Assembly (NCBI RefSeq): GCF_900083515.1
Contig: NZ_LT671858.1
Location: 630,001-662,000 of the forward strand
Direction of reading: 5' to 3'
Source of the DNA: Cuniculiplasma divulgatum
Lineage (GTDB): Archaea > Thermoplasmatota > Thermoplasmata > Thermoplasmatales > Thermoplasmataceae
Length of the DNA: 32,000 nucleotides
Part shown: positions 1,388-17,911 of the stretch, piece by piece
Layout: each line of letters starts with the position of its first letter
How positions within the stretch are numbered: position 1 is the first letter of the stretch
Notes under the pieces: model-generated
Databases searched by the model: none
What the model was told of the DNA's origin: nothing
Seen by the model: only the letters and a program-made list of their open reading frames with translations
Position numbers and translations under genes: made by a program

Positions 1388-4086
1388 GAACTGTTCTCAA
1401 CAACAGATCTTCCATCAACTTTACTCACATGCAGTGAAATATCTGCAGCGGTTTCAAGTTCTGTGTGATGAGTTATTATGACAATCTGAGGAAATATTCC
1501 CTCATCGCTCAGATCCTTCATGGCGTATTGAAGTATTTCGCGCAGGTCATTACGCCTCTCTTCATCGAGGTAAATTGTTGGTTCATCCATCATGATGGTG
1601 CTTATATTCCTTCCAAGATATTTGGCTATGGCCAGTCTCATTGCAATGGAAACAGCAGTCTTTTCACCACCACTTAGCTGAGTGATATTTTTTACCTCAC
1701 CATACTGCATTATATCAACATCCAGATCATCTGATATCCTGATATCTTCCATGTTGAGGTTGAATCTTGAGATTAGGTTCCTTGTTATGGAGTTAATTGA
1801 CTCCAGTGCCATCTGTCTTATGAGCTGTGGTATTCCGTCTCTGTTGAATGCTTTCCTTACAAGAACTAGAAAATCATGAAGTTTCTTTGTCCTTTCTATC
1901 TCTTCAAGATCTCCCTTAAACTTTTCAATATTCTTTTCAAGATCCTGAATGGATGTATTCAGTGATGATTTTTGACCGGTAAGATTTACTCTCCTTTCCA
2001 CAAGATCGCTATACCTCGAATTTATGTCTGATAACTCTCTGTCTATATCACCGAACTGATTTATCTCTTCTTTTAATTTTCCAATTTCTGTATTAGCATT
2101 TTCAATTAAAACTCTCAAAGAGTCCTGCCTTGTCTTTGCATCTTTCAAGGAATCTTCCTGACGCAAATACGACTCTATCTCCACTTTCAGTTCCATAATT
2201 GCTTTCTTCAATTTATCAAAATCCTGTGATCTTTTTCCCTGTTGCCAGAGAGAGTATGATTTTTGGTTGGATTTAATATCCGTTTCGATTTCATCAATCT
2301 TTTTTCTCCTTGCATTAATCTTTTCAGGTATATCCTGTTTATTTAGAGATTCAACAGTACCTTTCAAGCCTGACATTTTGCTTTCCAACTCCCTGAATTC
2401 TTTCTTTATTTTTTCGCTATCCTTCAAGAATGATAAAATTTGTTCGTACTTTATATGCGCATCTCTTGTTCCATTAAGATCATTCTGCATAGAGTTTATT
2501 TCTTTTTCAGTTCGACTAATGTCATCATTTATCTTGAAATAATTTCTCACGTAATTTGATGAAAATGCTTCAATACTAGCATTAAGGTTTTCTATCTTTT
2601 TTCTGAGTGCACTCTGCTTACTTTTATTTGAGTTTATCTCCTCCTCTGATTTCTCAATTTGGGTTCTGTATTCTTCCATAACTCTTGACCTGTGCTCCTG
2701 GGTGAGTTCCTGACCACACAGTGGGCACTGTCGTTCATTCTCCAGTTCATCTATTTTCGCTTTTAATTTAGTGATTTCATCTGTCAATCTTTTAATTACT
2801 GTACTGCAGGTAGCAATTTCCGATGCCTTCTCACTTTCTTCAGTTCTGAGTTTTTTTATTTCCTCTTCAACATCATCAAATGACATTTTTTGAGACACAA
2901 TCCTCTCAGGTAGGCTTTTTTCAATTTCTTTTAACATTTTTTTACTTTTCTCAACTTCAGACAATTTTTTCCCAACTTCCTTCTCAAGGTTTATGTATTT
3001 GTAATTTCCCTCTGAAGTCTGTTCTCTCTCCTTTTCCTTTTCTTCTATTTCCTTTATTTTAGAATTCAGTTCGCTATACCTTTTATTTAGCGAATTTATT
3101 TCTTTCGCGGATTCCCTTAAACTTTCAAGCTCTTTTTCCAGCTGATTTATCTGATTTTTTTCATCCTCAATTTGCCTTAGGCTCTGTTCTATAAGTGTTA
3201 TTTTATCCCCATTAAGATAGAGATCGCTATTTTCCATTTCAATCTGCTTTCTTTTTAGAGAATCAAGATTTTTCAGGCCTTCTCTTAAATCAACAATCTT
3301 CCTCTCCAGTTCATCCATCTCTTTCTTTGCTTTTTCTGTAGATTCTATTTGGGACTGCAATTTACCGGTTTTTTCAATAAATTTCCGGTGTTTTTCGTTT
3401 ATGTTATCTTTCAGCCTTTCCGTCTGATCCATATCCAGATGATTCTTATTTTCCTCCAGAATCACATTTTTAAGTTCTTCCTCCTTTCTGGCCTTCTCAT
3501 CATTTGTCTTTTTAAGATCATCTGTGAGATATTCATACTGGCCGATCCTTTCTGACATGCCTTTAACAATCCTGTCCACCTCGCTGAACGCCTTATCGTA
3601 ATTTTTTAATCCTATGATCTCATTGAACACATCCTTTCTTTCGGCTGGTGATTCTTTAACAAGTGAATCTATTTGCCCCTGATCAACATAAATTGAATTT
3701 ATGAAGGCACTTTTTGAAATGCCCATAATGTTCTGAATTTCATTAGAGACCGCACTTGCACCTTCTGCTAACTTCTGCCCATCCATAAGAAGTGCAGCGC
3801 TTCTTGTAGTCTCTCTGTCCTTTTTATTTTCTATCTGTCTGTATACTTCATATTCATGAGTACCTATTCTGAACCTGACCTGTATATTTGCCATTGTTGA
3901 ATTGTATGAAACAACTCTCTTTCTCTCACTCTCTCCCTGACCGAAGAATGCGACCTTTATGGCCTCAAAGATGGATGATTTCCCCGATCCATTCTGTCCC
4001 AGTATGATGTTAATTCCAGTACCAAGATTTACATCACTATGACTGTGTGATAGGAAATTTTCCATCTTCACATTTTCAATGATCAT
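1381..4086 (-). CDS. rad50: DNA double-strand break repair ATPase Rad50
   Basis: N-terminal Walker A GQNGSGKSS, a very long K/E-rich coiled coil, zinc hook CPLCGQ in the middle, signature LSGGEK and Walker B TIMMDEPT near the C-terminus. Overlaps the mre11 stop by 11 nt. Confidence 0.95.
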   Translation of the reverse strand: MIIENVKMENFLSHSHSDVNLGTGINIILGQNGSGKSSIFEAIKVAFFGQGESERKRVVSYNSTMANIQVRFRIGTHEYEVYRQIENKKDRETTRSAALLMDGQKLAEGASAVSNEIQNIMGISKSAFINSIYVDQGQIDSLVKESPAERKDVFNEIIGLKNYDKAFSEVDRIVKGMSERIGQYEYLTDDLKKTNDEKARKEEELKNVILEENKNHLDMDQTERLKDNINEKHRKFIEKTGKLQSQIESTEKAKKEMDELERKIVDLREGLKNLDSLKRKQIEMENSDLYLNGDKITLIEQSLRQIEDEKNQINQLEKELESLRESAKEINSLNKRYSELNSKIKEIEEKEKEREQTSEGNYKYINLEKEVGKKLSEVEKSKKMLKEIEKSLPERIVSQKMSFDDVEEEIKKLRTEESEKASEIATCSTVIKRLTDEITKLKAKIDELENERQCPLCGQELTQEHRSRVMEEYRTQIEKSEEEINSNKSKQSALRKKIENLNASIEAFSSNYVRNYFKINDDISRTEKEINSMQNDLNGTRDAHIKYEQILSFLKDSEKIKKEFRELESKMSGLKGTVESLNKQDIPEKINARRKKIDEIETDIKSNQKSYSLWQQGKRSQDFDKLKKAIMELKVEIESYLRQEDSLKDAKTRQDSLRVLIENANTEIGKLKEEINQFGDIDRELSDINSRYSDLVERRVNLTGQKSSLNTSIQDLEKNIEKFKGDLEEIERTKKLHDFLVLVRKAFNRDGIPQLIRQMALESINSITRNLISRFNLNMEDIRISDDLDVDIMQYGEVKNITQLSGGEKTAVSIAMRLAIAKYLGRNISTIMMDEPTIYLDEERRNDLREILQYAMKDLSDEGIFPQIVIITHHTELETAADISLHVSKVDGRSVVENSSY

Positions 4087-5203
4087 TCAAAATCTCCTCA
4101 CAGATCTTCAATATATCCTCATCACTGTGTTTTCCTTCCTTTATCAAATTGTATATTGATAGTGCCATGTTACCCTTTTTCTCATCACCAAAATATTTGG
4201 TGAATATTGATTCTATACTTTCTTCAAAAGATGGTGACATTTCAACAGCCTCTGCATTCTCTTCTATTATGGGCTGTCTGATTATGAATTTCTCCCTGTA
4301 TTCACCAAGTTTTTCCCTCATGTATTTCACATTAGGCTTACCATGTATATGCATGGTGATTACTGGTTTCTTTTCAAATTCCTGATTATTAAGTTCGTCC
4401 AGTTTCTCAAGACATTCATCCAGGGTTCCTGTAAGATCTCGCTGGACCCTGACACTCTTCAGGATCACCCTTTCCATCTCTGTTTCATCTCCATCTGTAT
4501 CAATAATATTAACACCCTTTCCCTGTCTTGTTAATCCTGAAATCTCATTTGTGCTTTTCACCTCAGTTGAACCTGCATAACAGAAAAGTGACCTTCCAAA
4601 TTTTTTCTTTATGAACTGGTGTATATGGCCAAAAGCCAGATATGTGTAATTTACAGGAAGGTCTTCTTCCCTTGCCTCTGAGCTTTCCGGAGGGAATAAT
4701 GGGGATATTGCCTGATGGGACATAAATACGGAAATTTTGTGCTCCGATGCCTCCCTGCTTGCCCTGTCATATTCATTCTTCAACTGTTCTCTTTTGAATA
4801 ACTTCATATTGCTGACGCCACCGATGAATACTTCCTCATTTCCTTTCCTGAATATTGTACTTTCAAATCCCTCAAGTCCCAGTATTTTCAGTCCAAAAAG
4901 ATCGAAAAGGAGGTGAGATGGATTATCCCTTACCTTTGGTCTGTCATGATCACCTGCAATGGAGAATACCGGAATATTGTTCTTTTGTAACAAGATCATA
5001 GATTCTTCAGCAACCCTTAGTGCCCTGTTAGATGGTCTTGCTGAATCAAACAGATCACCGGAATGAACGACGAAATCAACGTCCCTGTCTATTCCTATCT
5101 GTATGCCCTCCCTGAAGGCGTCATAGAAATCCAGTTCCCTTTCTGGAATTCCATACTGCACTGAGCCCAAATGTGTATCTGAAATATGCAGGAACCTGAC
5201 CGT
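4076..5203 (-). CDS. mre11: DNA repair nuclease Mre11 (calcineurin-like phosphoesterase); start codon unresolved
   Basis: Phosphoesterase motifs HSGDLFD, AGDHDRP, MSHQA and FGHIHQ lie within the listed ORF. Motif I (RFLHISDTHLG) is encoded in frame upstream of the listed TTG (5170). It lies between the herA stop (5204-5206) and 5170, with no ATG/GTG/TTG available. I extended the call to the ACG codon at 5201-5203. Confidence 0.85.
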   Translation of the reverse strand, partial: TVRFLHISDTHLGSVQYGIPERELDFYDAFREGIQIGIDRDVDFVVHSGDLFDSARPSNRALRVAEESMILLQKNNIPVFSIAGDHDRPKVRDNPSHLLFDLFGLKILGLEGFESTIFRKGNEEVFIGGVSNMKLFKREQLKNEYDRASREASEHKISVFMSHQAISPLFPPESSEAREEDLPVNYTYLAFGHIHQFIKKKFGRSLFCYAGSTEVKSTNEISGLTRQGKGVNIIDTDGDETEMERVILKSVRVQRDLTGTLDECLEKLDELNNQEFEKKPVITMHIHGKPNVKYMREKLGEYREKFIIRQPIIEENAEAVEMSPSFEESIESIFTKYFGDEKKGNMALSIYNLIKEGKHSDEDILKICEEILNDH

Positions 5204-6751
5204 TCACACCAGCCCCTTTATGAAATCTCTATTCTTTTCAGGTGAGGTGGCCTTTTCTCTCAGCATTTTTGATTCCTTCATCAATGGCAGTATATCTATA
5301 TCACCACCACCCTCTCGTGTTTCCCTTCTCCTGACCTTTATTATTACAGGAAATCTGACGAATTCCCCAACAAGTACAGCCTCTCCCGTATTCAGTGAAG
5401 GAAGGTCATTTATGATTGATTCACTAACACTCTCGCAGGATTCCTCAATTGCCTTCTGATCCATAGGATTGGTAACACGCAGAATTATTTGCGAGTTGCA
5501 CTGGCTCAACACATCCTGATCTATCTTTCCGGGCCTCTGGGTGATCACAACAAGAAATGTTCCAAATTTTCTTCCTTCTGCTGCTATTTTCTTAATCAGT
5601 AGGGGTAATTTTCCAACTGTCTCTCTCCCAACAAAATTATGTGCCTCTTCTATGAAGAAAAAGACGGGATACCTGAAATTTCCTGATGTTTTCTGGTCGT
5701 ATATCTCATCCAGAACCTTCAGGCAGAAATATGATATTATATCCTGATCAAGACCTGAAAGATCCAGAATGGAAAGCTGGCCAGGTCTCAGGTAAGATTC
5801 GACTGGTGTTGTAACATCGGTAAATATATCCTTTACAGCCTTGAGCAGGGCTATTCTCCCAGCAATCTTTGATTTATCCTGGAGAGGCATGGATTCATAG
5901 GCTCGCATGAAATCCTCAAAATTTCCCTTTCCCTTAATATTGGAATATAGACGCCTGACAATCTCCCTCATGTTTGTCCACTGCTCATCGATCCTCATTA
6001 TGTTGAACAGATCATCCTCCTCAAGATCCTGAAATCTCAGTGAGAATCGTTCAGTTAGGGAATTGAGTTCAGTTCCATACCGGCCTGTGCTCATTGGTGT
6101 TTTGAACACCTTCGTTATATTAGCCATGGATTTGCTCGCCTTCATCAGCGAATAGTCCGCATGTGGATCTAATACGACTATGGTCGCTCCAGCTTTTGCA
6201 AGTTCCTCTATAAGAACGGCAGCCGTATTACTTTTTCCTGCACCCGTTTGTGCCATAATTGCAACATGCCTTCTCATTCCATTGATGGATATCCCTGTTC
6301 TCACATTATCATAATCTGTAAGTGATCCAAGTTCAAGATTTCCATCCTCACTGTAACCGAAGAGTGTCTTCATCTCATTCTCTGTCGATCGCCTTACTGG
6401 TGTTCCGGGTCTTATGAGTTCTCTGTTGCTTTTCAGAACTCTTCCATCATCAGTTATTGATCCAACTGTTCTTGCCCTTGCAACATCAACTATCTCTCTT
6501 ATTTTGGTGCTGTTCAATTTCTTAACGGTCTCAAAATCTATACTCTGTCCAATGAGATCACTGAACGAAAGAAGCTTTTCAACTCTCCCTATAATGCTTC
6601 TCCCCTGCTGCACCACTGTTATATACTCCCACCTTTTGAGCACTGCTTCTGGACTGATCACGAACTGAAAATACTCGCTTTCACTCTGTCCTGTCACGTA
6701 TCCTATATCAAAATCTGATTCTTGCACGTCTTTCACCCCTTGTTTCAACAT
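5204..6751 (-). CDS. herA: HerA bipolar DNA helicase/translocase (FtsK-HerA superfamily ATPase)
   Basis: Walker A AQTGAGKSNT, Walker B FFFIEEAHNF, C-terminal ITQRPGKID. Sits between nurA and mre11. The start may be internal (GTG), because the listed ATG overlaps the nurA end by 44 nt. Confidence 0.92.
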   Translation of the reverse strand: MLKQGVKDVQESDFDIGYVTGQSESEYFQFVISPEAVLKRWEYITVVQQGRSIIGRVEKLLSFSDLIGQSIDFETVKKLNSTKIREIVDVARARTVGSITDDGRVLKSNRELIRPGTPVRRSTENEMKTLFGYSEDGNLELGSLTDYDNVRTGISINGMRRHVAIMAQTGAGKSNTAAVLIEELAKAGATIVVLDPHADYSLMKASKSMANITKVFKTPMSTGRYGTELNSLTERFSLRFQDLEEDDLFNIMRIDEQWTNMREIVRRLYSNIKGKGNFEDFMRAYESMPLQDKSKIAGRIALLKAVKDIFTDVTTPVESYLRPGQLSILDLSGLDQDIISYFCLKVLDEIYDQKTSGNFRYPVFFFIEEAHNFVGRETVGKLPLLIKKIAAEGRKFGTFLVVITQRPGKIDQDVLSQCNSQIILRVTNPMDQKAIEESCESVSESIINDLPSLNTGEAVLVGEFVRFPVIIKVRRRETREGGGDIDILPLMKESKMLREKATSPEKNRDFIKGLV

Positions 6752-7715
6752 ATTCTGATCCAGCCATTTTTATGAAAAGTTTCATAATAATATCCTCAGT
6801 TTCCTCCCTGTGGAATTTTACCCTCTTGTCTGCAAGTGATATCCACAGGTTGTGATTTTTCAAACCTGTATAACCCCACATAATCCATGATACTATATCC
6901 CTGTGATCCAGATCAGACCCATCTGGTATGATGAAATCAACCTTCATAGGTGTATCGTCCATGGATGGAAGAACATGCATGGTATAGAATGATATCTTTT
7001 GATCCTTTGTGATTTCTCTTTCCACTAATATGGGCTCAGTATATCCTGGATTCTGCACTATAGATTTTATTAAGAGATGATCAGTTATTGACTGTTTTCT
7101 CACACTTTCAGGTACATTGCTGTCTGTTTCCATTATAGTTCTTTTGAGAATCATAGTTTCAGAACTCTTACCTATAAAGATCAGAATGACTTTTTTTTCT
7201 TTAACGGTTCGAAGGAAATCTACAAGCTTTTCTGTGTACAGAGAATAAATATCAGGTAGATCAGTATCAAATTTCTTTGTCCTCCAGTAAAGCCTGCCGG
7301 AAAGTGATCCATCCATAATGCATATTTTTGCGTCTTTCTCCAGCATTGACCTTGTTGCTACTATATGCTCGAGATTCTCCATTATTCTCTTTATGAGCTC
7401 ACTTTTCTGTTCTCTGTCCACGTGAATAAGATGAAAACTATCTTCCTCAAGCTCTTCTCCTTCTATTTGGGAAACAGCCCTTGCAACTACAAGCTTCTGT
7501 CCATTATACAGTTCTCTTGAAAATTCTGAACCATCTGTTGCACTGATTCTGAGTTCAGGTTTTTTCTGCTCTGGGAGTTCATGAAATAATTTTCGAACCC
7601 TATCCTTAAAATAAATATACGCCGGATCTTCCTCGTGTAAAATAAGGCTTCTCCTTATTATCTCTCTGCTATTCTGGAGAAAGTCACTGTATTTTTCAAT
7701 AAAATCCATGGTCAA
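6708..7715 (-). CDS. nurA: NurA 5'-3' nuclease
   Basis: Size, operon position directly upstream of herA, and acidic catalytic contexts ISATDGSEF and IMDGSLSGRL typical of NurA. Confidence 0.82.
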   Translation of the reverse strand: MTMDFIEKYSDFLQNSREIIRRSLILHEEDPAYIYFKDRVRKLFHELPEQKKPELRISATDGSEFSRELYNGQKLVVARAVSQIEGEELEEDSFHLIHVDREQKSELIKRIMENLEHIVATRSMLEKDAKICIMDGSLSGRLYWRTKKFDTDLPDIYSLYTEKLVDFLRTVKEKKVILIFIGKSSETMILKRTIMETDSNVPESVRKQSITDHLLIKSIVQNPGYTEPILVEREITKDQKISFYTMHVLPSMDDTPMKVDFIIPDGSDLDHRDIVSWIMWGYTGLKNHNLWISLADKRVKFHREETEDIIMKLFIKMAGSEYVETRGERRARIRF

Positions 7716-10067: not shown

Positions 10068-10372
10068 GTATAACCTCTTGATCTTTTCCCCGTTCTAACG
10101 GGAACCATTCATTTTCCTGGTTCCTCTGACCCCCGGGGAATTTTTCGCCAGCCTCTGATCGGCATTTCATAGCAGGAATTAGATCCTATACTAGTGCAGA
10201 GGCCCATATGGCGAGGCGATTTATTGCCCTGTGTCGTCATATAAACTCATGAGATCATTTATACTAATCTCAGGGCGTTTCAGATATGGAAACATTTTAA
10301 TTAAGGTTTGTTGATAAGAATTTTAAACAAAAATGGAGACTGTAATGTATTAAAACCTGCAGGAAAATAGAA

Positions 10373-11372
10373 GTGTGTTGCATAATTCCTCCTGCATAGT
10401 GAAATACAGAGGAACGATTTGCTGTTATGACAAATCAACAAATCACTGCTGCCGGTAATAGAAGCACAAGAAGGCACTGGATCGGTTCAGACAGAAGGTT
10501 TGACAGGTATTACATATCTCGTGTGAATAAAATTGAAGATCTCATTGATCCATCAATTCTCATGGATTGGAAGACATTCCTTATAAGAGAACAATGAGGG
10601 TAAGAGAGGACATCCTTCCAGAACACCCAGTGCATTCATAACATTTCTTGTCAAATTAAGGGCAATGTACAGCATTCCCTTCAGATCACATGTGGGAATT
10701 GCCAGAATATTTGCAAGGACCACCGGAATCTGTTTAGTGTGTTATACAAGCATATTCAGAAGAATCAGGAAGATCGTGCCAATTCTTCCTCTCAAAGATA
10801 CCTGTGGAGAGCCGTGGGCTGAATAGATTCCACAGGATTCAAGATAACCATAAGGGGTGATTTCCTGGAAAGAAAATGGAACAGAACAAGAAGAGGATGG
10901 TCAAAGCTTCATGCTGTAATATCAATACATGATTTATCTGTACTGTCATTTGCAATAACAGATGAGCATGTGCATGATGCAAAGAGTGGAAAGGAGTTGC
11001 TGAAGCCTGTAATGGAAAGGATCAAAAGGATATTCGCAGACAGGGGTTATGATTCAAAGGCAATATTCAATGAATTCGGTTCCAACACTGTAATACCTGA
11101 TAGAAAGAACGCATTAACCAGGAGCAGGGGATCACCTTCAAGATCAAAAATAGTCAGTCAGATTAAAAGGACATCAGAGAAGGAATAGAAAAAATTTATT
11201 GATTACGGAAAGAGATGGAATGTGGAGATATATTTCTCAGGATTGAAGAGAACCATGGAAGAAATAATCAAGGCCAATAGGCCAGACTACATTGCACAGG
11301 AGATTGCCTTAAAGGTGCAGTATTATAACATCCTCAGGGAGATAACACAAGCATATTAAATTGTGCAACAAA
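10373..11372 (+). mobile_element. Decayed IS5-like insertion sequence (about 1 kb) with imperfect terminal inverted repeats
   Basis: Left end GTGTGTTGCATAA (10373-10385). The right end TTGTGCAACAAAT (11360-11372) matches its reverse complement at 10 of 13 positions. The interior encodes a broken DDE transposase. Confidence 0.75.
10427..11358 (+). pseudogene. DDE transposase (DDE_Tnp_1 / IS5-like) pseudogene
   Basis: Readable pieces are MTNQQITAAG...LIREQ* and then ...SIFRRIRKIVPILPLKD in another frame. A further piece reads IDSTGFKITIRGDFLERKWNRTRRGWSKLHAVISIHD...ADRGYDSKAIFNEFG...SEKE*KKFIDYGKRWNVEIYFSGLKR...REITQAY. The DSTG, DRGYD and RWNVE(x)YF motifs are present. The frame is interrupted by TGA (10820), TAG (about 11186) and at least one frameshift. 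Listed ORF 10970-11188 is only a fragment of this pseudogene. Confidence 0.72.
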
Positions 11373-11641
11373 TAGTATAACGAAGACACTAAATCTGGTC
11401 AATTTTACTCTGAGAAATTAATTGGTGCTAATATATTAACTGAAAGTAAAGTAAGTCCAAACAGCTATTTTATTAAGAATCTAGTTAGAGTAAATCCAGA
11501 TAAGTTGCTCGGTATAGTATTAAAGAAAGTTTTTGAATATGAACAGAAGAAAAATATGAAGTCTTTTACTGATACATATTAATATAATATTTTATTTATA
11601 TTCTCACTCTATTAGATTAATAATTTTGAAAGATAGTGGTT

Positions 11642-12028
11642 TTAGTCATAAACCCAGGAAGGAGGAATCAAATAATAGTGACCTGTAATTTTCTTAATTT
11701 CCTTTTCTGATCTTACTATATTTGTTAATGCATAAATTATACCAATTAAAGAGATTAAGATTTCAATAAATTCTGCATACCCTATAGCACCTGTCGATCT
11801 CAATTCTAAATCGGTAAGAACAAAATATACAATGAGCATAACCATTATTGAGAGAGATTTGGTTATGGCAATATTAGTAAATCCGAACAACGACCTTCTC
11901 ATAGAAAATTTCTTAATAGAACTCTTCTTATATGATTGTTTTTCCTGTCTACTATAATAAACAATTACTCCGAAAAGTAATAAAACTAGTATAAGGGTAA
12001 ATACAGCATTAAGATCAACATTACTCAT
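11642..12028 (-). CDS. Small multi-TM membrane protein, paralog of 12788-13150 (candidate partner/immunity-like protein of the orphan module)
   Basis: Three hydrophobic segments. The C-terminal tail IVRSEKEIKKITGHYYLIPPSWVYD closely parallels IVKTEKQFKRYSGHYSIKPPEGFYD of the other copy. It holds the same position downstream of a homologous C-terminal module. Confidence 0.55.
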   Translation of the reverse strand: MSNVDLNAVFTLILVLLLFGVIVYYSRQEKQSYKKSSIKKFSMRRSLFGFTNIAITKSLSIMVMLIVYFVLTDLELRSTGAIGYAEFIEILISLIGIIYALTNIVRSEKEIKKITGHYYLIPPSWVYD

Positions 12029-12153
12029 ATTAATTCACCATTGCTTTTCATATATTTTAATTTATCACGTTTTTACACATATCTCCTTCCTCTTGGAGTC
12101 TATTATTGGAATTGATCCGTAGATCATACCTTTTGTCCATTTTCATGAACATA

Positions 12154-12600
12154 TCACCCGAATATTAAATATACAGGACTGGATAAACTTGCACTATAAG
12201 TTTCTCCTTCCTTACCCAAGTTTCCTGTAAGTGTTGTATTAAACAGAGTAAATCCCACGTTTTATGTGAAGTGATCAACCTGTTCAACCTGCGATCCTTT
12301 TTCATTTATGGAAGTGCATACGATTTGGTTAAATGCGTTTAAAATTAAATAACATCCATAGTTGAAATATCCATATGGCTCATTTGGGGCCTTGGATGTA
12401 GCCCTGTCACAGCATTCAAAGTGACCATTACAATTCAAATTATTGGTAATTATTGTTTTATCAGGATTGCACACGTATTCTTCAACTGCTACACCAACTG
12501 ATATGGCAAACAAGATCACAGGAAGATAATTTGTAGATTCAGTTGCACAGGATATTGCTAGGGGTGTATAATAAAAATAGGTACCTGAGGACTTATCACA
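12154..12600 (-). pseudogene. Orphan, diverged copy of the C-terminal module of the 545-aa protein, with an in-frame TAA
   Basis: The frame is open from 12600 and reads ...YYTPLAISCATESTNYLPVILFAISVGVAVEEYVCNPD...ECCDRATSKAPNEPYGYFNYGCY...VDHFT*NVGFTLFNTTLTGNLGKEGETYSASLSSPVYLIFG*. This is collinear with residues from about 390 to the end of the 545-aa protein (CDYTPLEY...NPDHP...TCCQNAFDKAPNIPDPYFYYGCY...MDHFTYGEKFVLINTTLTGNVCEERETYSGSFTSPAYLLFG*). TAA at 12262-12264 replaces the Tyr codon. There is no N-terminal part and no ATG. Confidence 0.65.
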
Positions 12601-12787
12601 TTATACCGCATTCTTATAATATACAGATTCTCCTGAATTACATATCTTTTTTGTATCATTTGATCTTAGAAACTTCTGATCACTAAACTATTACTTCTCT
12701 TTCAATTCTTTCCATCAATATAAAGCGAAAAAAGGAATAAATTAAAAGAAGGCCATCTTAACCTTCACATGATATCAACTCAACTAA

Positions 12788-13150
12788 CTAATCATAAAAT
12801 CCCTCTGGAGGTTTAATGGAATAGTGACCGCTATATCTTTTGAATTGTTTCTCTGTTTTTACGATCTGCCTAATAAGATTTAAAATCAGGATTATTAGAA
12901 TGAATAGGATAAAATAGTCATATACTGCGAGATGAAGTAATTGTAATGCAATGTATACCCACGTTATGAGACTCCCTACAATGATACCTACAACTATATG
13001 TGTTATGCTATAGGAAAATACAATTTTTTTTCGGAGTTTGTTCTCTAAATCCGTTTCGGAATGAATTTTGCGGATCAGCCAGGAATTAAATAATAATTCT
13101 GAAGGTAGGATGAATATTAGAAGTTCGTCAAAATTGAACATGTTAATCAC
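12788..13150 (-). CDS. Small multi-TM membrane protein tightly coupled to the 545-aa gene (candidate immunity-like/partner protein)
   Basis: GTG at 13150 overlaps the upstream TGA (GTGA), or alternatively ATG at 13141 lies 5 nt after that stop. Two to three hydrophobic helices. Conserved tail SGHYSIKPPEGFYD is shared with 11642-12028. Confidence 0.6.
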   Translation of the reverse strand: MINMFNFDELLIFILPSELLFNSWLIRKIHSETDLENKLRKKIVFSYSITHIVVGIIVGSLITWVYIALQLLHLAVYDYFILFILIILILNLIRQIVKTEKQFKRYSGHYSIKPPEGFYD

Positions 13151-14784
13151 CCAAACAGCAGATACGCTGGACTGGTAAAAGAACCAGAATAGGTTTCTCT
13201 TTCTTCACATACATTTCCTGTCAATGTTGTATTAATCAGCACAAATTTTTCTCCATAGGTGAAATGATCCATAGTCGACGGATCATTATATCCTACTGAC
13301 AAATTAAACCTTTCGCTAAACATATTTGAGGGTTGATAGCATCCATAATAGAAATAAGGATCTGGTATATTGGGTGCTTTATCAAATGCATTTTGGCAGC
13401 AGGTTAATTTCTGATCATTATTAACATTGTTTAATATTACAGGATGATCTGGATTGCCAAAATATTCGCCCAGAGCTATGGCAATGTTTACTGAGACTTC
13501 AGGGGCAACAGTAATCAATGTAACAAAAGATATTCCGTCGGTTAATACAGTTAATGAACCAAATATTAAAGCTGCTGCCAAACCTGCAACTAAATATTCC
13601 AGTGGAGTGTAATCACAAGTGGTTGATACACACGATGCTTGAAGATTTTGAAAATAGACTGACTGGCTAACACCTTTGCTGTTCCCGGAATATTCAAAGG
13701 AGTAGCATCTCTTATTCACACCCATCACATTTTTCGGAGATATCATGCTCTGGTAAAGATATACTCTGTCGGAATCACTCCTCAATATTATTCCTCCAGA
13801 AATTCCAGCGATTACCTTTCCTGTTGATGCATCAATAACCTTACCCTGTCCTGGAAACTCCTGTAAATCTGGTAATTCATATCCAGTATTGAAATTTACG
13901 TATTCGTTAAAAGAGTGGCCAAGATGATCCTGACATGTCCATTCTGATGTCCCAGGATATTGGTATGCAATTTCAAACCCACTGAAGCAACCTATATTGT
14001 TAACAGTTGTGCTGAAACACTTATTTTCGCATTGATATGCGTTTGAGGTTCCTAAAAGAATATCATTACAATTTTTGGTTACCTCAAAGTAGCCCTCTTT
14101 AACTGGCCCATTACTAGTATCAGAAGTTACAGTGTAAGATATTTTTACATGTCCATCTGATGAACCATTGGCAAAGCATGTGGATGATGGCTGGCTTATG
14201 TCCAGATTGGAGAGAGTTGGAGGATAGGTTGTAGTGGCTGTAGATCCTCCACCTCCCCCACTTCCACCACCACCTCCACCACTTTTGTGGATAGGTCTTC
14301 CCTGAGAGATTGTTGGTTCTATATTAGGATCAATGGTGTATGTTTCGTGAGCACTCAATTTTACGGGACCAAATGAAAGAATTAACGCATCATATCCATT
14401 CATCTTCTTTATCTCTCCCATGTGAAAGATATTTGAATCACATATCCAGTTTATGTTAAGTCCACCCATTTTAATGCTGGAATCATTCTGATCTAATATG
14501 AAATCATTTTGATTCAATGAATGAACAGAATTACCGTCGTTACCTGAAATTTTAAAGTTATTGGAATTTGGTAATACAACTGTGAAATCTACAATGTATA
14601 CTGCACTTGCATTGATCATATTCTGGAATGCAACTGAAGAACTCATTCCATAACTGTCGAAGAAGAATGCATCTACAGCCTTCGTATGGTTCCCACTTCT
14701 TATTAGATCTGCAGATGTACATTTACCGTTTTGAATTTCTTTAGAATGATATGAATTGAAATTCACCACAGACACATTTCCCAT
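13147..14784 (-). CDS. Large Cys-rich putative surface protein with Gly/Thr linker and C-terminal TM region; no recognisable family
   Basis: 545-aa ORF with good coding character. The linker is KSGGGGGGSGGGGGSTATTTYPPTL. The middle domain has many Cys. A hydrophobic stretch LVAGLAAALIFGSLTVLTDGISFVTLITVAP is followed by a Cys-containing tail. There is no N-terminal signal sequence of its own. Confidence 0.7.
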   Translation of the reverse strand: MGNVSVVNFNSYHSKEIQNGKCTSADLIRSGNHTKAVDAFFFDSYGMSSSVAFQNMINASAVYIVDFTVVLPNSNNFKISGNDGNSVHSLNQNDFILDQNDSSIKMGGLNINWICDSNIFHMGEIKKMNGYDALILSFGPVKLSAHETYTIDPNIEPTISQGRPIHKSGGGGGGSGGGGGSTATTTYPPTLSNLDISQPSSTCFANGSSDGHVKISYTVTSDTSNGPVKEGYFEVTKNCNDILLGTSNAYQCENKCFSTTVNNIGCFSGFEIAYQYPGTSEWTCQDHLGHSFNEYVNFNTGYELPDLQEFPGQGKVIDASTGKVIAGISGGIILRSDSDRVYLYQSMISPKNVMGVNKRCYSFEYSGNSKGVSQSVYFQNLQASCVSTTCDYTPLEYLVAGLAAALIFGSLTVLTDGISFVTLITVAPEVSVNIAIALGEYFGNPDHPVILNNVNNDQKLTCCQNAFDKAPNIPDPYFYYGCYQPSNMFSERFNLSVGYNDPSTMDHFTYGEKFVLINTTLTGNVCEERETYSGSFTSPAYLLFG

Positions 14785-14834
14785 GGCTGACGAATTGGAA
14801 ACATAAGGTGATGCAATTTTATCTGACTGTGTGC

Positions 14835-15110
14835 CTATTTTAAAATTTCATACTGAACAGGATACTTAAAGGAACCAAAGGATATGATGGGCTGACTTCC
14901 CACAAAACAGACAGATTCACCACACTTTGAATAAAGGGCTTCAGGGACATTGCTGTTTACATTTGATACTGAATTAGAGTTCTGAGACGAATTGTTGAAA
15001 GTGATTACCGTAAAACCTATGGAAAAAATCATTATTAGAGAAAGGAAAACAACTGTTATTTTGCCTATACTTTTTCTTGCCTCTTTATTTATGTTAAGTT
15101 TCACTTCCAC
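14835..15110 (-). CDS. Signal-anchor leader ORF (N-terminal TM + Ser/Asn-rich spacer), possibly the detached N-terminus of the 545-aa protein
   Basis: MEVKLNINKEARKSIGKITVVFLSLIMIFSIGFTVITF, then NNSSQNSNSVSNVNSN. Ends at TAG (14835-14837) immediately after T TTA AAA. The 545-aa frame is already open from 14847. Confidence 0.45.
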   Translation of the reverse strand: MEVKLNINKEARKSIGKITVVFLSLIMIFSIGFTVITFNNSSQNSNSVSNVNSNVPEALYSKCGESVCFVGSQPIISFGSFKYPVQYEILK

Positions 15111-15158
15111 TAAAAAATATAAATCGCAATTATTTTTATATCTTGTGGATACTCAAAT

Positions 15159-15793
15159 TGTGTTGCATAAACCATTTAATAATTTTTCCTGAAAATATAA
15201 TGGATGCTGTTTGTGAAATTCAACAAACCAAATGATCATGGAAAAGATACGGTCACTGTACAATAGTTAAGTGTTAAAAGCCATGAGACGCATTCCAGTT
15301 CTTAATGATATTGAAGTTCACATGTATGATCTGAAGAATTATAACAGGAAGAAGAATGAAAGATCGTTTATCATTCCAGACAGGATCATTGAATTTATTG
15401 CAGAATCAGATCAGTGTTCAATGCATTATTCAGGTCACTGGAATCGTATCTGATAGTATTTGTATATGGCAGAGATTCCAGAAATATATTCTATATTTTG
15501 AGCAATAATAGCATAGATACAATTACTTCACTTATGAAGAATCTGAATTCGATGTCAAGAAATTTCACAACCTGAGGAAGAACGGATAGGAAGATCAGGG
15601 AACCTGGGTTAGATGAATGAAGATGTTTTGAGTAATATGTGAAAAGATGGACAGTTGAAACAGACATTTTAAATCCTAAAAGAATCATGAAAGAAATCAT
15701 CAAAGCAAGAAAAAAGATTACATGATTCAGGAAGTTTGGCTGAAGAAGCTCTATTACAACACTATGAAGGATGATAGATTTTTATGCAACACA
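15159..15793 (+). mobile_element. Non-autonomous (MITE-like / internally decayed) derivative of the same IS family
   Basis: Perfect 13-bp terminal inverted repeat: TGTGTTGCATAAA (15159-15171) and TTTATGCAACACA (15781-15793), matching the left end of the IS at 10373. The subterminal sequence TGCTGTT..TGA.AA.TCAACAAA lies at the same 46-nt offset from the terminus as in the IS. No intact transposase. Confidence 0.68.
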
Positions 15794-15824
15794 GTTGGAA
15801 AATAGAATAAATATGTGAGGCTAT

Positions 15825-16769
15825 ATGTTTAAGAATGAAAACGAATTTTATAATTATGGTGTTTTTATGGACGAAGATCAGGTAAAAAAACAGGAGGCAA
15901 TAGTAAGAAATGTTTTGTACAAGAATCTAATGGAAGCATATATTCCCTTTCCGATGGACAGAAAAATTTCCACCCAATGGGCTGAACAGATGAACATTCC
16001 AAGAGGTGGGAAAGTCATAATCTACACGTCATTCATGTATCAAATGGCAACCATTTTTAAGTCATATGAAAAATATATCCCTACTTTCGGTTCACTTGGA
16101 ACTTCAAGAATAGTTGCATCAATCGGTTCAAAACTGATCAGACCAAAGAAAGAGGATGTGGTAAGAGCAGATAGCATACTGAAGAATATTTACAGAATGA
16201 TTTCAAAAAACGTTGAAAATGTAGGATATCTCTATGAGGATGAACCATACAGTGGTTCTCTCCTTCTGGAACTAGGGTTTATCGATGAGTTCAGGGAATA
16301 TGGACTGAAGGTAGAATCTTTCTTAAAACAGAAGGGTGTGGAATCCATAATCACTGTTGATCCACATACAACCAACACACTGAATAACCTGAAAAGGTAT
16401 ATTGGCTTTGATATACCATTTACTTCATACCTTAAAATCATAAGAAGTGGAAATGGAAAGGGATCATTTGTCCTCCATGACTCATGTCTTTACTCTCGTT
16501 TTCTCGATATGTATGATAGTGTAAGAGTTCTACTAAAAGATTCTGGGGTAGAACTGAAGGAAGATCCCGTTGTGACAGGAAAGGGTAGTAGTTTATGCTG
16601 TGGAGCACCAATGGGTCCCCTAAGTGATCATCTCAGCAATGAGATGGCGAAATCAAGGGCAGAAGATCTAAAGAAGATCAGTGAAAACATACTGGTGGCA
16701 TGTCCACTATGTTATGCCAATCTCTCGGAGTTTGCAAATGTGAAGGATATTGCAGAGGTGATAGCATGA
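15825..16769 (+). CDS. Cysteine-rich (CCG-domain) Fe-S oxidoreductase subunit, LutA/GlpC-like
   Basis: Two CCG-type Cys clusters (HDSCLYSRF ... SSLCCGAPMGP ... ACPLCYANL). Stop overlaps the next gene start (ATGA at 16766-16769). Confidence 0.72.
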   Translation: MFKNENEFYNYGVFMDEDQVKKQEAIVRNVLYKNLMEAYIPFPMDRKISTQWAEQMNIPRGGKVIIYTSFMYQMATIFKSYEKYIPTFGSLGTSRIVASIGSKLIRPKKEDVVRADSILKNIYRMISKNVENVGYLYEDEPYSGSLLLELGFIDEFREYGLKVESFLKQKGVESIITVDPHTTNTLNNLKRYIGFDIPFTSYLKIIRSGNGKGSFVLHDSCLYSRFLDMYDSVRVLLKDSGVELKEDPVVTGKGSSLCCGAPMGPLSDHLSNEMAKSRAEDLKKISENILVACPLCYANLSEFANVKDIAEVIA

Positions 16770-17911
16770 CCTGGGAACAGACAATAGGGCCAATAGCTAG
16801 GGGAAATAATGCGGAAGTTGAAAGGGTTTTGAAGCAATATCCGTATATAGAGGAAATCACGAAGCACCTAAGGGAACAGAAATTAAAGGTTTTGGATGAT
16901 CTTGACAGTTACATAAAAATGACTGTAAAAAGTGTTGAAAGTGTTCATGGACATGTTCATATGGCCAGGGACAAGGAAGAGGCCAGGAAAATCCTTGGAG
17001 AACTTACCGGGCAGAACAAAACAATTGTGTTTTCTAAGACAAATGTTGCTTATGAAATAGGCCTTAGAGAATATCTGGAGAGCTTAAAAAATGAGGTCTG
17101 GGAAACAGATCTGGGCGAATTTCTCATTCAGATATCTAAAAGCTGGCCTGCACATATAGTAGAGCCTGCAATCGGGATGACACTTCAACAGGCTTCGGAA
17201 GCAGTTAATAAGTACGATGGTACAATAAACAAAAGCTCAAGCATTGAAGAAGTCGTTGCCGGAGTGAGAAAATTCCTCATGTCAAAATATCTTAAAGCAG
17301 ATATAGGGATCACGGGCGCCAATGCGGTCGCAGCAGATAGTGGTTCTGTAGTTCTGGTTGAAAATGAGGGCAATATTAGAATGGATACAGTAATGCCACA
17401 AACCCATATTGCAATAACAGGAATCGACAAAATTGTCCCAACCATGAGAGATGCCATGGATGAGGCTATCGTTCAGGCTGCATATGCAGGTATATTCCCG
17501 CCTACATACGTTAATGTTACAACAGGACCAAGTTCAACAGCAGACATTGAATCACACCGTGTTTCACCTGCCACTGGACCGAAGAATTTTCACCTGATCT
17601 TAATTGACGATGGAAGAACAGTGGCAAGTAAGGATCCCGCCCTGAAGGAAGGTTTACTGTGTATAAAGTGTGGCAGGTGTTATTTCTCATGCCCAACATA
17701 TAGGGTAATGGGAACAGACTGGATTTCAAGGGTATCTCCATATAATGGACCAACCGGGGTTATGTGGAATTATATAACAAACAAGGATCCATGGCCTGCC
17801 AGTTACTGCGTTCATTCTGGTGGATGCAAAGTAGTATGCCCAATGGAGATAAATATTCCTGAGGTAATAAGAGAAATAAGATACAGGGGATCAAAAAAAC
17901 TTAAGAAATGA
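16766..17911 (+). CDS. LUD-domain iron-sulfur protein, LutB-like (lactate utilisation / electron transfer)
   Basis: Starts at MTWEQT (ATG 16766), not the listed upstream Met. LUD/DUF162-like core (GITGANAVAADSGSVVLVENEGN) plus two ferredoxin-type clusters CIKCGRCYFSCP and CVHSGGCKVVCP. Confidence 0.75.
   Translation: MTWEQTIGPIARGNNAEVERVLKQYPYIEEITKHLREQKLKVLDDLDSYIKMTVKSVESVHGHVHMARDKEEARKILGELTGQNKTIVFSKTNVAYEIGLREYLESLKNEVWETDLGEFLIQISKSWPAHIVEPAIGMTLQQASEAVNKYDGTINKSSSIEEVVAGVRKFLMSKYLKADIGITGANAVAADSGSVVLVENEGNIRMDTVMPQTHIAITGIDKIVPTMRDAMDEAIVQAAYAGIFPPTYVNVTTGPSSTADIESHRVSPATGPKNFHLILIDDGRTVASKDPALKEGLLCIKCGRCYFSCPTYRVMGTDWISRVSPYNGPTGVMWNYITNKDPWPASYCVHSGGCKVVCPMEINIPEVIREIRYRGSKKLKK

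Follow-up and report, generated by a model that had tools for sequence, protein, structure and literature searches.

Pore-forming colicins with their multi-transmembrane (TM) immunity proteins, and the ionophore CdiA-CT(EC93) with CdiI from the contact-dependent inhibition (CDI) systems, join an effector that carries a hairpin to a polytopic protector encoded next to it. In the wider CDI and Rhs systems (CdiA-CT/CdiI, Rhs-CT/RhsI), a small gene is linked to a large one whose C-terminal module recombines. The MgPar and RepMP elements of Mycoplasma, a wall-less host, are truncated and promoter-less copies of parts of a surface-protein gene that share flanking homology with the expressed gene. 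In Proteus mirabilis, IdsD and IdsE are encoded by adjacent genes and have two predicted TM helices each; their variable regions overlap the TM segments and a cognate match decides the outcome (PMC4471559). Among archaea, the VARTIG loci of Thermococcales combine a large surface protein, made of beta-sandwich domains with a hypervariable and recombining C-terminus, with variable downstream genes, and no counterpart was found outside Thermococcales (PMC8416519). Here we describe a two-gene locus of the archaeon Cuniculiplasma divulgatum. It lies in a stretch of 32,000 nt (from here: the window), positions 630,001 to 662,000 of contig NZ_LT671858.1 (assembly GCF_900083515.1). The locus varies the known theme of polymorphic cognate pairs: its proteins are uncharacterised archaeal ones, and it is borne on what looks like a composite transposon.

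All open reading frames (ORFs) that the original prediction, made from the letters of the window alone, had listed for this locus were found on the minus strand where it had placed them (ORF listing and translation). The gene of the large surface protein (13147-15110) is present as two ORFs of 91 aa (15110-14835) and 545 aa (14784-13147) and would encode about 654 aa if repaired. It is followed by the gene of a small membrane protein of 120 aa (12788-13150; from here: small1), whose GTG start overlaps the stop of the large gene. Further downstream lie a 5′-truncated pseudogene remnant of a C-terminal module (12154-12600; from here: the orphan) and, as its partner, an intact gene for a second small membrane protein of 128 aa (11642-12028; small2) with the tail subtype SEKEIKK.TGHYYL.PP.

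To place this arrangement, genomic contexts were compared across all homologues, with the genes mapped by tblastn. A metagenome scan with the narrow alignment A3 returned only nine loci. In the related loci each C-terminus is trailed by a small gene with a GHY-containing tail of the matching subtype, and the identity matrices of C-termini and small genes are correlated (Mantel r = 0.80, p <= 1e-4). The large proteins P0004 and P0005 do not differ at all up to about residue 400 (100% identity), share 23-50% from there on and are paired with different small genes. P0002 and P0006, which stem from the same metagenome sample, form the reverse mosaic, with an identity of 30-57% in the N-terminus and of 73-87% in the C-terminus. 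The original prediction had likened the locus to bacterial CDI and Rhs arrays of toxin and immunity genes. The organisational half of this comparison stands: the N-terminal ~400 residues are conserved while the C-terminal third and the downstream small gene switch type together, and orphan modules occur in homologous loci (L005, L010, L014 and L015) as they do in the window. The toxin half is not supported, as set out below. The breakpoints are sharp, vary by pair and fall at about residue 400, at about residue 503 (Y[TL]P) or around the hairpin alone; a fixed demarcation motif of the kind of VENN or PxxxxDPxGL was not found.

The orphan pieces in these loci differ in extent, comprising the last ~55 aa in L005, the last 30 aa in L010 and ~40 aa in L014. 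L015 is an array without a full gene, in which a 318-aa half with a small gene is followed by a C-terminal remnant with two stop codons and a further small gene; its first copy keeps ~60 residues that are 93% identical to an expression-type gene. Small genes are in surplus, with two in L014, two in L009, three in L005 (one of them frameshifted) and three in L020-L021, and they outnumber the full large genes by about 2:1 in the distinct loci examined. In L033-L035, from Cuniculiplasma-like genomes and syntenic with L005, the large gene is absent and a lone small gene is left, P0118, the one that NCBI names in Cuniculiplasma divulgatum. This lone gene is 77% identical to the third small gene of L005, and the ratio of non-synonymous to synonymous substitution rates (dN/dS) is 0.23 at a dS of 0.57, as under purifying selection. 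The C-terminal third of the large gene and the small gene are exchanged together as cassettes, by recombination across strains and species. A cassette that comes in takes the place of the resident C-terminus and leaves behind decaying 5′-truncated remnants and intact extra small genes, and the surplus partner genes are kept under purifying selection even where the large gene is missing. A hybrid was observed in L037 (6898-8327), where a 264-aa 3′ half of a P0005-type large gene and a small gene are joined, together with integrase-side element genes, to the acyl-CoA-dehydrogenase/154-aa context that is also the site of the orphan array of L015. This suggests recombination between an element-borne copy and a chromosomal orphan site.

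In the window, a second copy of the final ~140 codons of the 545-aa ORF lies at 12573-12157 and is 40% identical to the first (BLASTP E = 3e-29; tblastn 44% over 117 aa). All the shared landmarks pointed out previously, namely YTPL, NPD, CC, KAPN.P, YGCY, DHFT, NTTLTGN, ETYS and SP.YL.FG, are aligned. The duplication of the C-terminal module is real and far beyond chance. The orphan has no start codon, contains an in-frame TAA at 12264-12262 and is ~28 codons short in its hairpin compared with the closest allele type, so that one helix is left. It is 51-63% identical to P0004-type C-termini and 40-44% identical to the adjacent main C-terminus. Likewise, the nearest relatives of small2 are the small genes downstream of P0004-type C-termini (34-39% identity, compared with 26% to small1). 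Because the orphan and small2 are both nearer to P0004-type alleles (51-63% and 39%, respectively) than to their own neighbours (40-44% and 26%), the sequence relationships identify them as a displaced resident cassette of a different allele, and a recent local tandem duplication was rejected.

The variable part of the pair could be mapped more narrowly by comparing the window with L014, which is ~90% identical overall and lies in a different genomic context. Outside two separate patches, nucleotide identity along the operon is 95-98%. The first patch coincides with the hairpin of the large protein (window 13584-13465; 63-66% nucleotide identity) and the second with the N-terminal two-thirds of the small protein (window 13164-12925; 50-75%). 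Identity is 95-100% both in the 300 nt that separate the patches and in the tail of the small gene. For the hairpin, dN/dS is 0.94 (dN 0.37, dS 0.39), compared with 0.09 for the ectodomain and 0.25 for the C-terminal beta domain. The raised dS of the hairpin indicates that the patches were made by imported sequence, beyond point mutation alone. Clade-wide, the hairpin contains the least conserved 20-residue window (0.28), and the mean pairwise identity there is 0.28-0.48. The polymorphic region also takes in the exposed ectodomain residues ~420-500 and the C-terminal beta domain. We infer that, within the membrane, the hairpin of the large protein would meet the variable TM helices of its small partner and that this contact would set the specificity of the pair.

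The large gene of the window is itself interrupted. Comparison with L019, a 98.7% identical contig with one extra base at this site, locates a 1-nt deletion near 14841. The only relatives of the large protein among 5.8 billion clusters are eight in number, mostly 626-661 aa long, and they read through the junction uninterrupted (…VQYDIFKIGTQSDK…). The supposed separate leader ORF is therefore the N-terminus of the large gene, and the 545-aa protein, formerly labelled full-length, belongs to a frameshifted gene from which ~654 aa would be expected. The identical 91+545 split recurs in L021 (99.95%) and L022 (99.8%), two independent metagenome contigs of this strain, so that a sequencing error is an unlikely cause. 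The frame is intact in L020, where a 654-aa gene was called, and in L024, and the partial copy in L019 is uninterrupted at the site. Given the recurrence in L021 and L022 and the uninterrupted frames in L020, L024 and L019, the frameshift is a genuine strain polymorphism. The large gene of the window is probably inactive, with both small genes intact. If the small proteins protect their bearer, the window strain would be in an 'immunity-only' state. At 14838-14852 on the minus strand the 1-nt deletion creates the heptamer T_TTA_AAA directly before the TAG stop, which has the canonical form of a -1 slippery site; a -1 slip there would yield …EILKIGTQSDK… and regain the exact length and register of the intact homologues (…DIFKIGTQSDK…). 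A low level of full-length product through ribosomal or transcriptional slippage at this heptamer is conceivable.

The architecture of the large protein was modelled with AlphaFold2 (AF2) on a 56-sequence alignment, giving a mean predicted local distance difference test score (pLDDT) of 74.9; the model from a 9-sequence alignment was unusable (pLDDT 33.7). The model starts with an N-terminal helix at residues 9-33, as in a signal-anchor, followed by a first beta domain, a Gly-rich linker, beta domains over residues ~300-495, two helices of low confidence at 504-523 and 537-552, and a C-terminal beta domain at 565-654. The first ectodomain (residues ~55-265; 14317-14948, minus strand) is modelled with a pLDDT >90 as a beta-supersandwich of the galactose-mutarotase/YidC-P1 type. 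Its Foldseek matches are YidC P1, aldose epimerases and glycoside-hydrolase supersandwich domains, with E values of 1e-5 to 1e-4 and target-relative TM-scores of 0.45-0.5. The middle part of the protein matches immunoglobulin (Ig)- and fibronectin type III (FN3)-like folds. The two helices form a hydrophobic helical hairpin (residues ~504-552; 13456-13602, minus strand), which is the most variable segment of the large protein. In the narrow clade its best 19-residue window reaches a hydropathy of 2.0-2.7, against mostly <1.8 in distant relatives. The C-terminal Cys-rich domain (residues ~565-654; 13150-13419, minus strand) is modelled as all-beta with a pLDDT of 75-88 and had no match in Pfam or among PDB profiles. 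Its conserved NTTLTGN sequon and conserved cysteines suggest that this domain is extracellular, and it is probably glycosylated; the turn of the hairpin would in that case be cytoplasmic. A near-invariant motif, ETY(T/S)IDP.I.P, ends the first domain just before the poly-Gly linker (residues 256-266; window ~14320-14345), and its D261, P262 and P266 are nearly invariant across the whole family of ~95 clusters. No peptide bond is more acid-labile than Asp-Pro, and the habitat of these organisms has a pH of about 1. As pure speculation, acid-driven self-cleavage at this bond could free the C-terminal two-thirds of the protein from its N-terminal anchor.

A profile search against 1.84 billion representatives returned 95 clusters of large-protein relatives, surface proteins of Thermoplasmata, most of which share the first domain only. 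This family matches no model in any of the profile libraries searched. About 10 of the 95 clusters have the full architecture; their helical hairpin is less hydrophobic, and S.P.YI ends their C-terminal beta domain. In those distant members whose contigs were examined, the next gene encodes a single-pass protein of 200-270 aa and not a small protein with the GHY tail. The partners of distant members in L011 (11983-12753), L025, L027, L029 and L032 are rich in sequons and only weakly related to one another. The polymorphic pair is a specialisation within a lineage of ordinary-looking surface proteins.

The small proteins form a family of only 18 clusters. Small1 has 2-3 TM helices and the conserved basic tail KTEKQFKRYSGHYSIKPPEGFYD. 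The core of the family is a two-helix hairpin, preceded by a basic R..FGY/F motif and followed by an invariant basic tail (K.EK.FK.y.GHY...PP...Y). As predicted, small1 and small2 are diverged except for this tail, since the similarity is limited to 45 aa (40% identity, E = 7e-8). In the sister contigs L020-L024 an extra small gene, P0108 (109 aa), lies between small1 and the orphan and has a copy of an 88-nt repeat on either side. This repeat is made up of the conserved small-gene tail and downstream sequence, and the window has a single copy of it (12781-12868, minus strand). The one-repeat state of the window reflects either a true deletion by recombination between the repeats or a collapse in the assembly. 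The Joint Genome Institute (JGI) label of P0108 as 'VirB3-like' has no support from Pfam or NCBIfam.

The segment 10371-15796 looks like a composite transposon. Two identical copies of the 9-bp direct repeat GGAAAATAG (10362-10370 and 15797-15805) adjoin the terminal inverted repeats on the outside and match in 9/9 positions, as a target-site duplication. On the left lies a decayed insertion sequence (IS) on the plus strand (10371-11374) with a fragmented DDE transposase and the ends AAGTGTGTTGCATAA (10371-10385) and a degenerate inverted copy (11360-11374). Its fragment 10970-11188 matches PF01609 (DDE_Tnp_1) with E = 9e-5 and 22.8 bits, compared with a curated Pfam cut-off of 23. On the right lies a non-coding element resembling a miniature inverted-repeat transposable element (MITE) at 15156-15796, with the ends AATTGTGTTGCATAA (15156-15170) and TTATGCAACACAGTT (15782-15796), the outer of which is the other terminus of the composite. 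The outer 15-nt inverted ends AAGTGTGTTGCATAA and TTATGCAACACAGTT match in 14/15 positions, and the 12-mer TTATGCAACACA has three perfect occurrences, where 0.27 matches are expected at <=1 mismatch. L014 has a different chromosomal context, and its homology to the window sets in precisely at the outer end of the MITE-like element. In L014 the same ends (2805-2819 and 6828-6842) bound the same cargo, with an 8/9 duplication AGAAAA[T/G]TC and a different gene neighbourhood. No functional transposase was found in the element, as its reading frames are broken and only DDE fragments remain, and it is now non-autonomous.

A second vehicle is seen in another lineage: in L036 the pair is enclosed by an integrated element that has a tyrosine integrase (PF00589, E = 4e-22) as well as replication-like genes, and in L004 paralogous element genes adjoin the pair on both sides. 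The element (L036 1-12100; L004 and L002 1-5135) encodes a protein of 879-944 aa, many small ORFs and a 267-aa protein with a PHROGs match to DnaA-like replication initiators; the 944-aa form of the former has a weak match to DUF5906 (primase/helicase type). Assembly GCA_027316645.1, which contains the element-borne pair, also holds a lone orphan small gene elsewhere (L034). The original prediction was thus correct in describing the locus as IS-bracketed, by a decayed IS and a MITE-like element with a common terminal repeat, and as mobile cargo, given the transposon ends and target duplication here, the second site in L014 and the integrase-bearing element in L036. Its remark that the segment is AT-rich holds for 11000-13000 and 14500-16000 (GC 0.30-0.33, flanks 0.38-0.43) and fails for the body of the large gene (GC 0.37-0.39).

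At 4076-7715 of the window, a conserved repair cluster of the NurA-HerA-Mre11 type lies downstream of M50 and M20 peptidase genes. It forms a stable syntenic anchor, by which L020-L023 are recognised as alleles of exactly this locus. At 16260-17338, 1,079 nt of the window are missing from L020 and L024, the ~96% identical strains with an intact large gene. This absence takes out the 3′ part of a CCG-domain gene and the 5′ part of the transposon-adjacent LUD-domain gene, so that the flank of the insertion is itself polymorphic.

Compared with the described systems, the locus resembles CDI and Rhs loci in its conserved N-terminus with a recombining C-terminal module, in the linked and co-varying small gene, in displaced 5′-truncated C-terminal copies that each have a small gene, in surplus small genes and in carriage on mobile elements. 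Unlike those loci, it has no recognisable toxin domain, fixed demarcation motif, FHA or YD repeats, or type V, VI or VII secretion system (T5SS, T6SS, T7SS); its C-termini represent one domain that is also present in non-polymorphic relatives, and its variable core is a TM hairpin. With pore-forming colicins and CdiA-CT(EC93) it has in common a hydrophobic helical hairpin in the large protein, a small polytopic protein (2-3 TM helices) encoded adjacently, a mobile-element-borne pair and frequent orphan immunity genes, as well as, by our reading, recognition from helix to helix within the membrane. It differs from colicins in that there is no sequence or fold similarity to a pore domain and the large protein is apparently anchored by an N-terminal TM helix rather than secreted. 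Like IdsD/IdsE, the locus has adjacent genes for TM proteins with two discrete hypervariable patches, in the hairpin and in the TM part of the small protein. The Ids system differs in its dependence on T6SS export, as no T6SS genes occur in any of our loci, in the larger size of IdsE with its soluble C-terminal domain and in its lack of orphan C-terminal remnants, and family searches found no homology.

VARTIG shares with the locus an archaeal, lineage-restricted distribution and a polymorphic-toxin-like organisation; the locus was set beside arCOG07710, the large Ig-domain protein of VARTIG whose C-terminal Ig domain is hypervariable, by description and by general Ig/FN3-like Foldseek matches only. 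The proteins and the host lineage are different, and in our case there is a single family of small TM partners and the variable core is a membrane hairpin instead of an Ig domain. MgPar and RepMP also belong to a wall-less organism and their truncated copies share flanking homology with the full gene. Unlike these, the cassettes of our locus carry their own intact small gene, the copies decay and the most variable part is intramembrane. Truncated copies with flanking homology (L015) and an import-like hairpin patch are what silent cassettes might leave; however, these copies contain stop codons, and no pair of donor and recipient was recognised. Membership in the CDI/Rhs, colicin, IdsD/IdsE or VARTIG class is not supported, the toxin-domain and homology features having been absent where tested.

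Thermoplasmatales are an order whose cultured members mostly lack a cell wall. We read the locus as a mobile two-gene cognate-pair module of this order. Gene 1 would encode a membrane-anchored surface protein, with signal-anchor, carbohydrate-binding-like supersandwich, Gly-rich linker, Ig-like domains, hairpin and Cys-rich beta domain. Gene 2, translationally coupled to it, would provide a protein with 2-3 TM helices and a conserved basic cytoplasmic tail that shields its bearer from the large protein displayed by neighbouring cells. By analogy with pore-forming colicins and CdiA-CT(EC93)/CdiI, the hairpin would most likely act as a membrane-inserting effector and the small protein as the immunity protein. 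Wall-less cells would touch membrane to membrane. Cuniculiplasma cells have the cytoplasmic membrane as their sole boundary (PMC5155288), which makes presentation from membrane to membrane without a secretion machine plausible. A protective role of the small protein, be it immunity or exclusion, would be most likely, as it suits best that partner genes are retained, that some strains have lost the large gene and that the pair travels on mobile elements. Immunity against a membrane-acting effector in particular we propose tentatively and with somewhat less than even confidence. Still more doubtful, if possible, is that Thermoplasmatales possess a class of contact-dependent conflict or recognition systems of their own, in which a hypervariable hairpin is inserted into the naked membrane of a neighbour, a co-varying TM protein neutralises or recognises it in an allele-specific manner and transposons and integrating elements spread the pair. 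If true, this would be a functional equivalent of CDI and colicin systems made from unrelated, archaeal-specific parts and needing no secretion apparatus.

Several results weigh against an effector and its immunity protein. Searches of Pfam, NCBIfam, PADLOC, PHROGs and PDB profiles gave no match for the large protein, the C-terminal module or the small proteins, and thus no toxin, pore-former or enzyme signature. Foldseek with the whole 654-residue model, including its poorly predicted hairpin, found no toxin and no pore-former, only supersandwich and Ig/FN3-like folds, and the hairpin with the C-terminal domain matched no pore-forming domain in Pfam or PDB profiles. The AF2 model is poor exactly at the hairpin. 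All C-termini align as homologous variants of one domain rather than as unrelated toxin folds. The architecture of hairpin and C-terminal beta domain is found also in distant, ordinary-looking surface proteins with a different, single-pass downstream partner, and the origin of the pair as a specialisation among such proteins counts against the C-terminus as a bolt-on toxin cassette. Genes or repeats for secretion or delivery (T5SS, T6SS, T7SS, FHA, YD) were absent from all neighbourhoods, the N-terminal signal-anchor being all there is. Linkage by itself would already make adjacent genes co-vary to some extent. Finally, the beta domain and small gene of the second orphan in L015 are 97-100% identical to L001, yet its hairpin is unrelated and contains a stop, so that the coupling between hairpin and partner is not absolute. 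The toxin part of the earlier interpretation is unsupported, in view of the missing toxin domain, the single-domain C-termini and the lack of nearby delivery machinery. Two further candidates were rejected. For anti-phage defence, PADLOC gave no matches. A viral spike or fusogen was considered as L002 and L004 adjoin a replication-protein block; there was no relative in IMG/VR, PHROGs gave nothing for either protein, and the Foldseek matches in BFVD and PDB were all generic ones of FN3/Ig and supersandwich type, with no class I-III fusogen or fusexin among them.

The absence of a toxin domain would suit a non-lethal function in recognition or exclusion. The large protein would then serve the mobile elements or the cell as an adhesin or fusion-mating protein, and the matching allele would be recognised by the small protein within the membrane. 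The outcome could be a block of redundant transfer, comparable to entry exclusion by TraG/TraS-Eex of conjugative elements, or a signal of 'self' comparable to IdsD/IdsE, and chromosomal orphan small genes would guard the host from entry of the element or broaden the range of recognised kin. The location of the pair within an integrase-bearing element with replication-like proteins (L036) and between paralogous element genes (L004) agrees with this, and so do the ectodomains, which resemble binding modules (supersandwich and Ig-like) and not enzymes, and the purifying selection on stand-alone small genes. Both partners have two TM helices overlapped by the variable patches, which matches the experiments on IdsD/IdsE (PMC4471559). 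However, neither partner is homologous to Ids, Tra or Eex proteins, the neighbourhood lacks genes for conjugation or a T6SS, the 'VirB3-like' P0108 being unsupported as such, Foldseek matched no known fusogen, and most copies reside in ordinary chromosomal contexts. We consider recognition or exclusion unlikely as the function.

Variation of the surface under pressure from viruses or ectosymbionts would make the large protein a major exposed protein and the small one a membrane subunit for its assembly or anchoring. Truncated silent copies would recombine to diversify the exposed C-terminal third, as with MgPar/RepMP of Mycoplasma or pilS of Neisseria, and the partner would co-vary only to fit the hairpin. 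The Thermoplasmata family of ~95 surface-protein clusters, the extension of the polymorphism over the exposed ectodomain (~420-500) and the C-terminal beta domain, and the import-like hairpin patch with raised dS as well as dN point in this direction. The 5′-truncated array of L015 lies at a separate site, and its ~60 residues with 93% identity to an expression-type gene would make it a suitable conversion donor; adhesin variation of this kind is known in other wall-less organisms. But the orphans bear stop codons and deletions, the most variable segment is embedded in the membrane and not exposed, and one strain has a frameshifted large gene and L033 has none, so that this gene is dispensable. 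Surface variation also assigns no role to tandem intact small genes without a C-terminal copy (L014, L009, L020) or to the lone conserved small gene (L033), and we judge it improbable to a similar degree. The plainest explanation, ordinary decay in a junk-rich island with the orphan and small2 as functionless leftovers of a tandem duplication, could draw on the frameshift in the large gene, the stop codon and deletion in the orphan and the adjacent IS remnant. It is very unlikely, as the orphan and small2 are nearer to alleles of other genomes than to their neighbours and so do not stem from a local duplication, the same organisation is found in at least five independent loci, and the small genes are under purifying selection.

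Conflict between archaeal cells and systems of self/non-self recognition in archaea are poorly known, and for the wall-less acidophiles dominant in acid-mine biofilms a limited literature check brought up no such system. The locus offers a compact two-gene module, a natural series of alleles, 'immunity-only' genotypes and two narrowly mapped intramembrane candidate determinants. Even under an ordinary reading, the transposon-borne exchange of surface modules between co-occurring species is documented. If the small protein is indeed a protective partner, evolution by cassette displacement, in which the N-terminus is conserved, the C-terminus is swapped along with its partner and orphans are left over, would have arisen independently with unrelated proteins, and direct membrane contact could substitute for secretion machinery.

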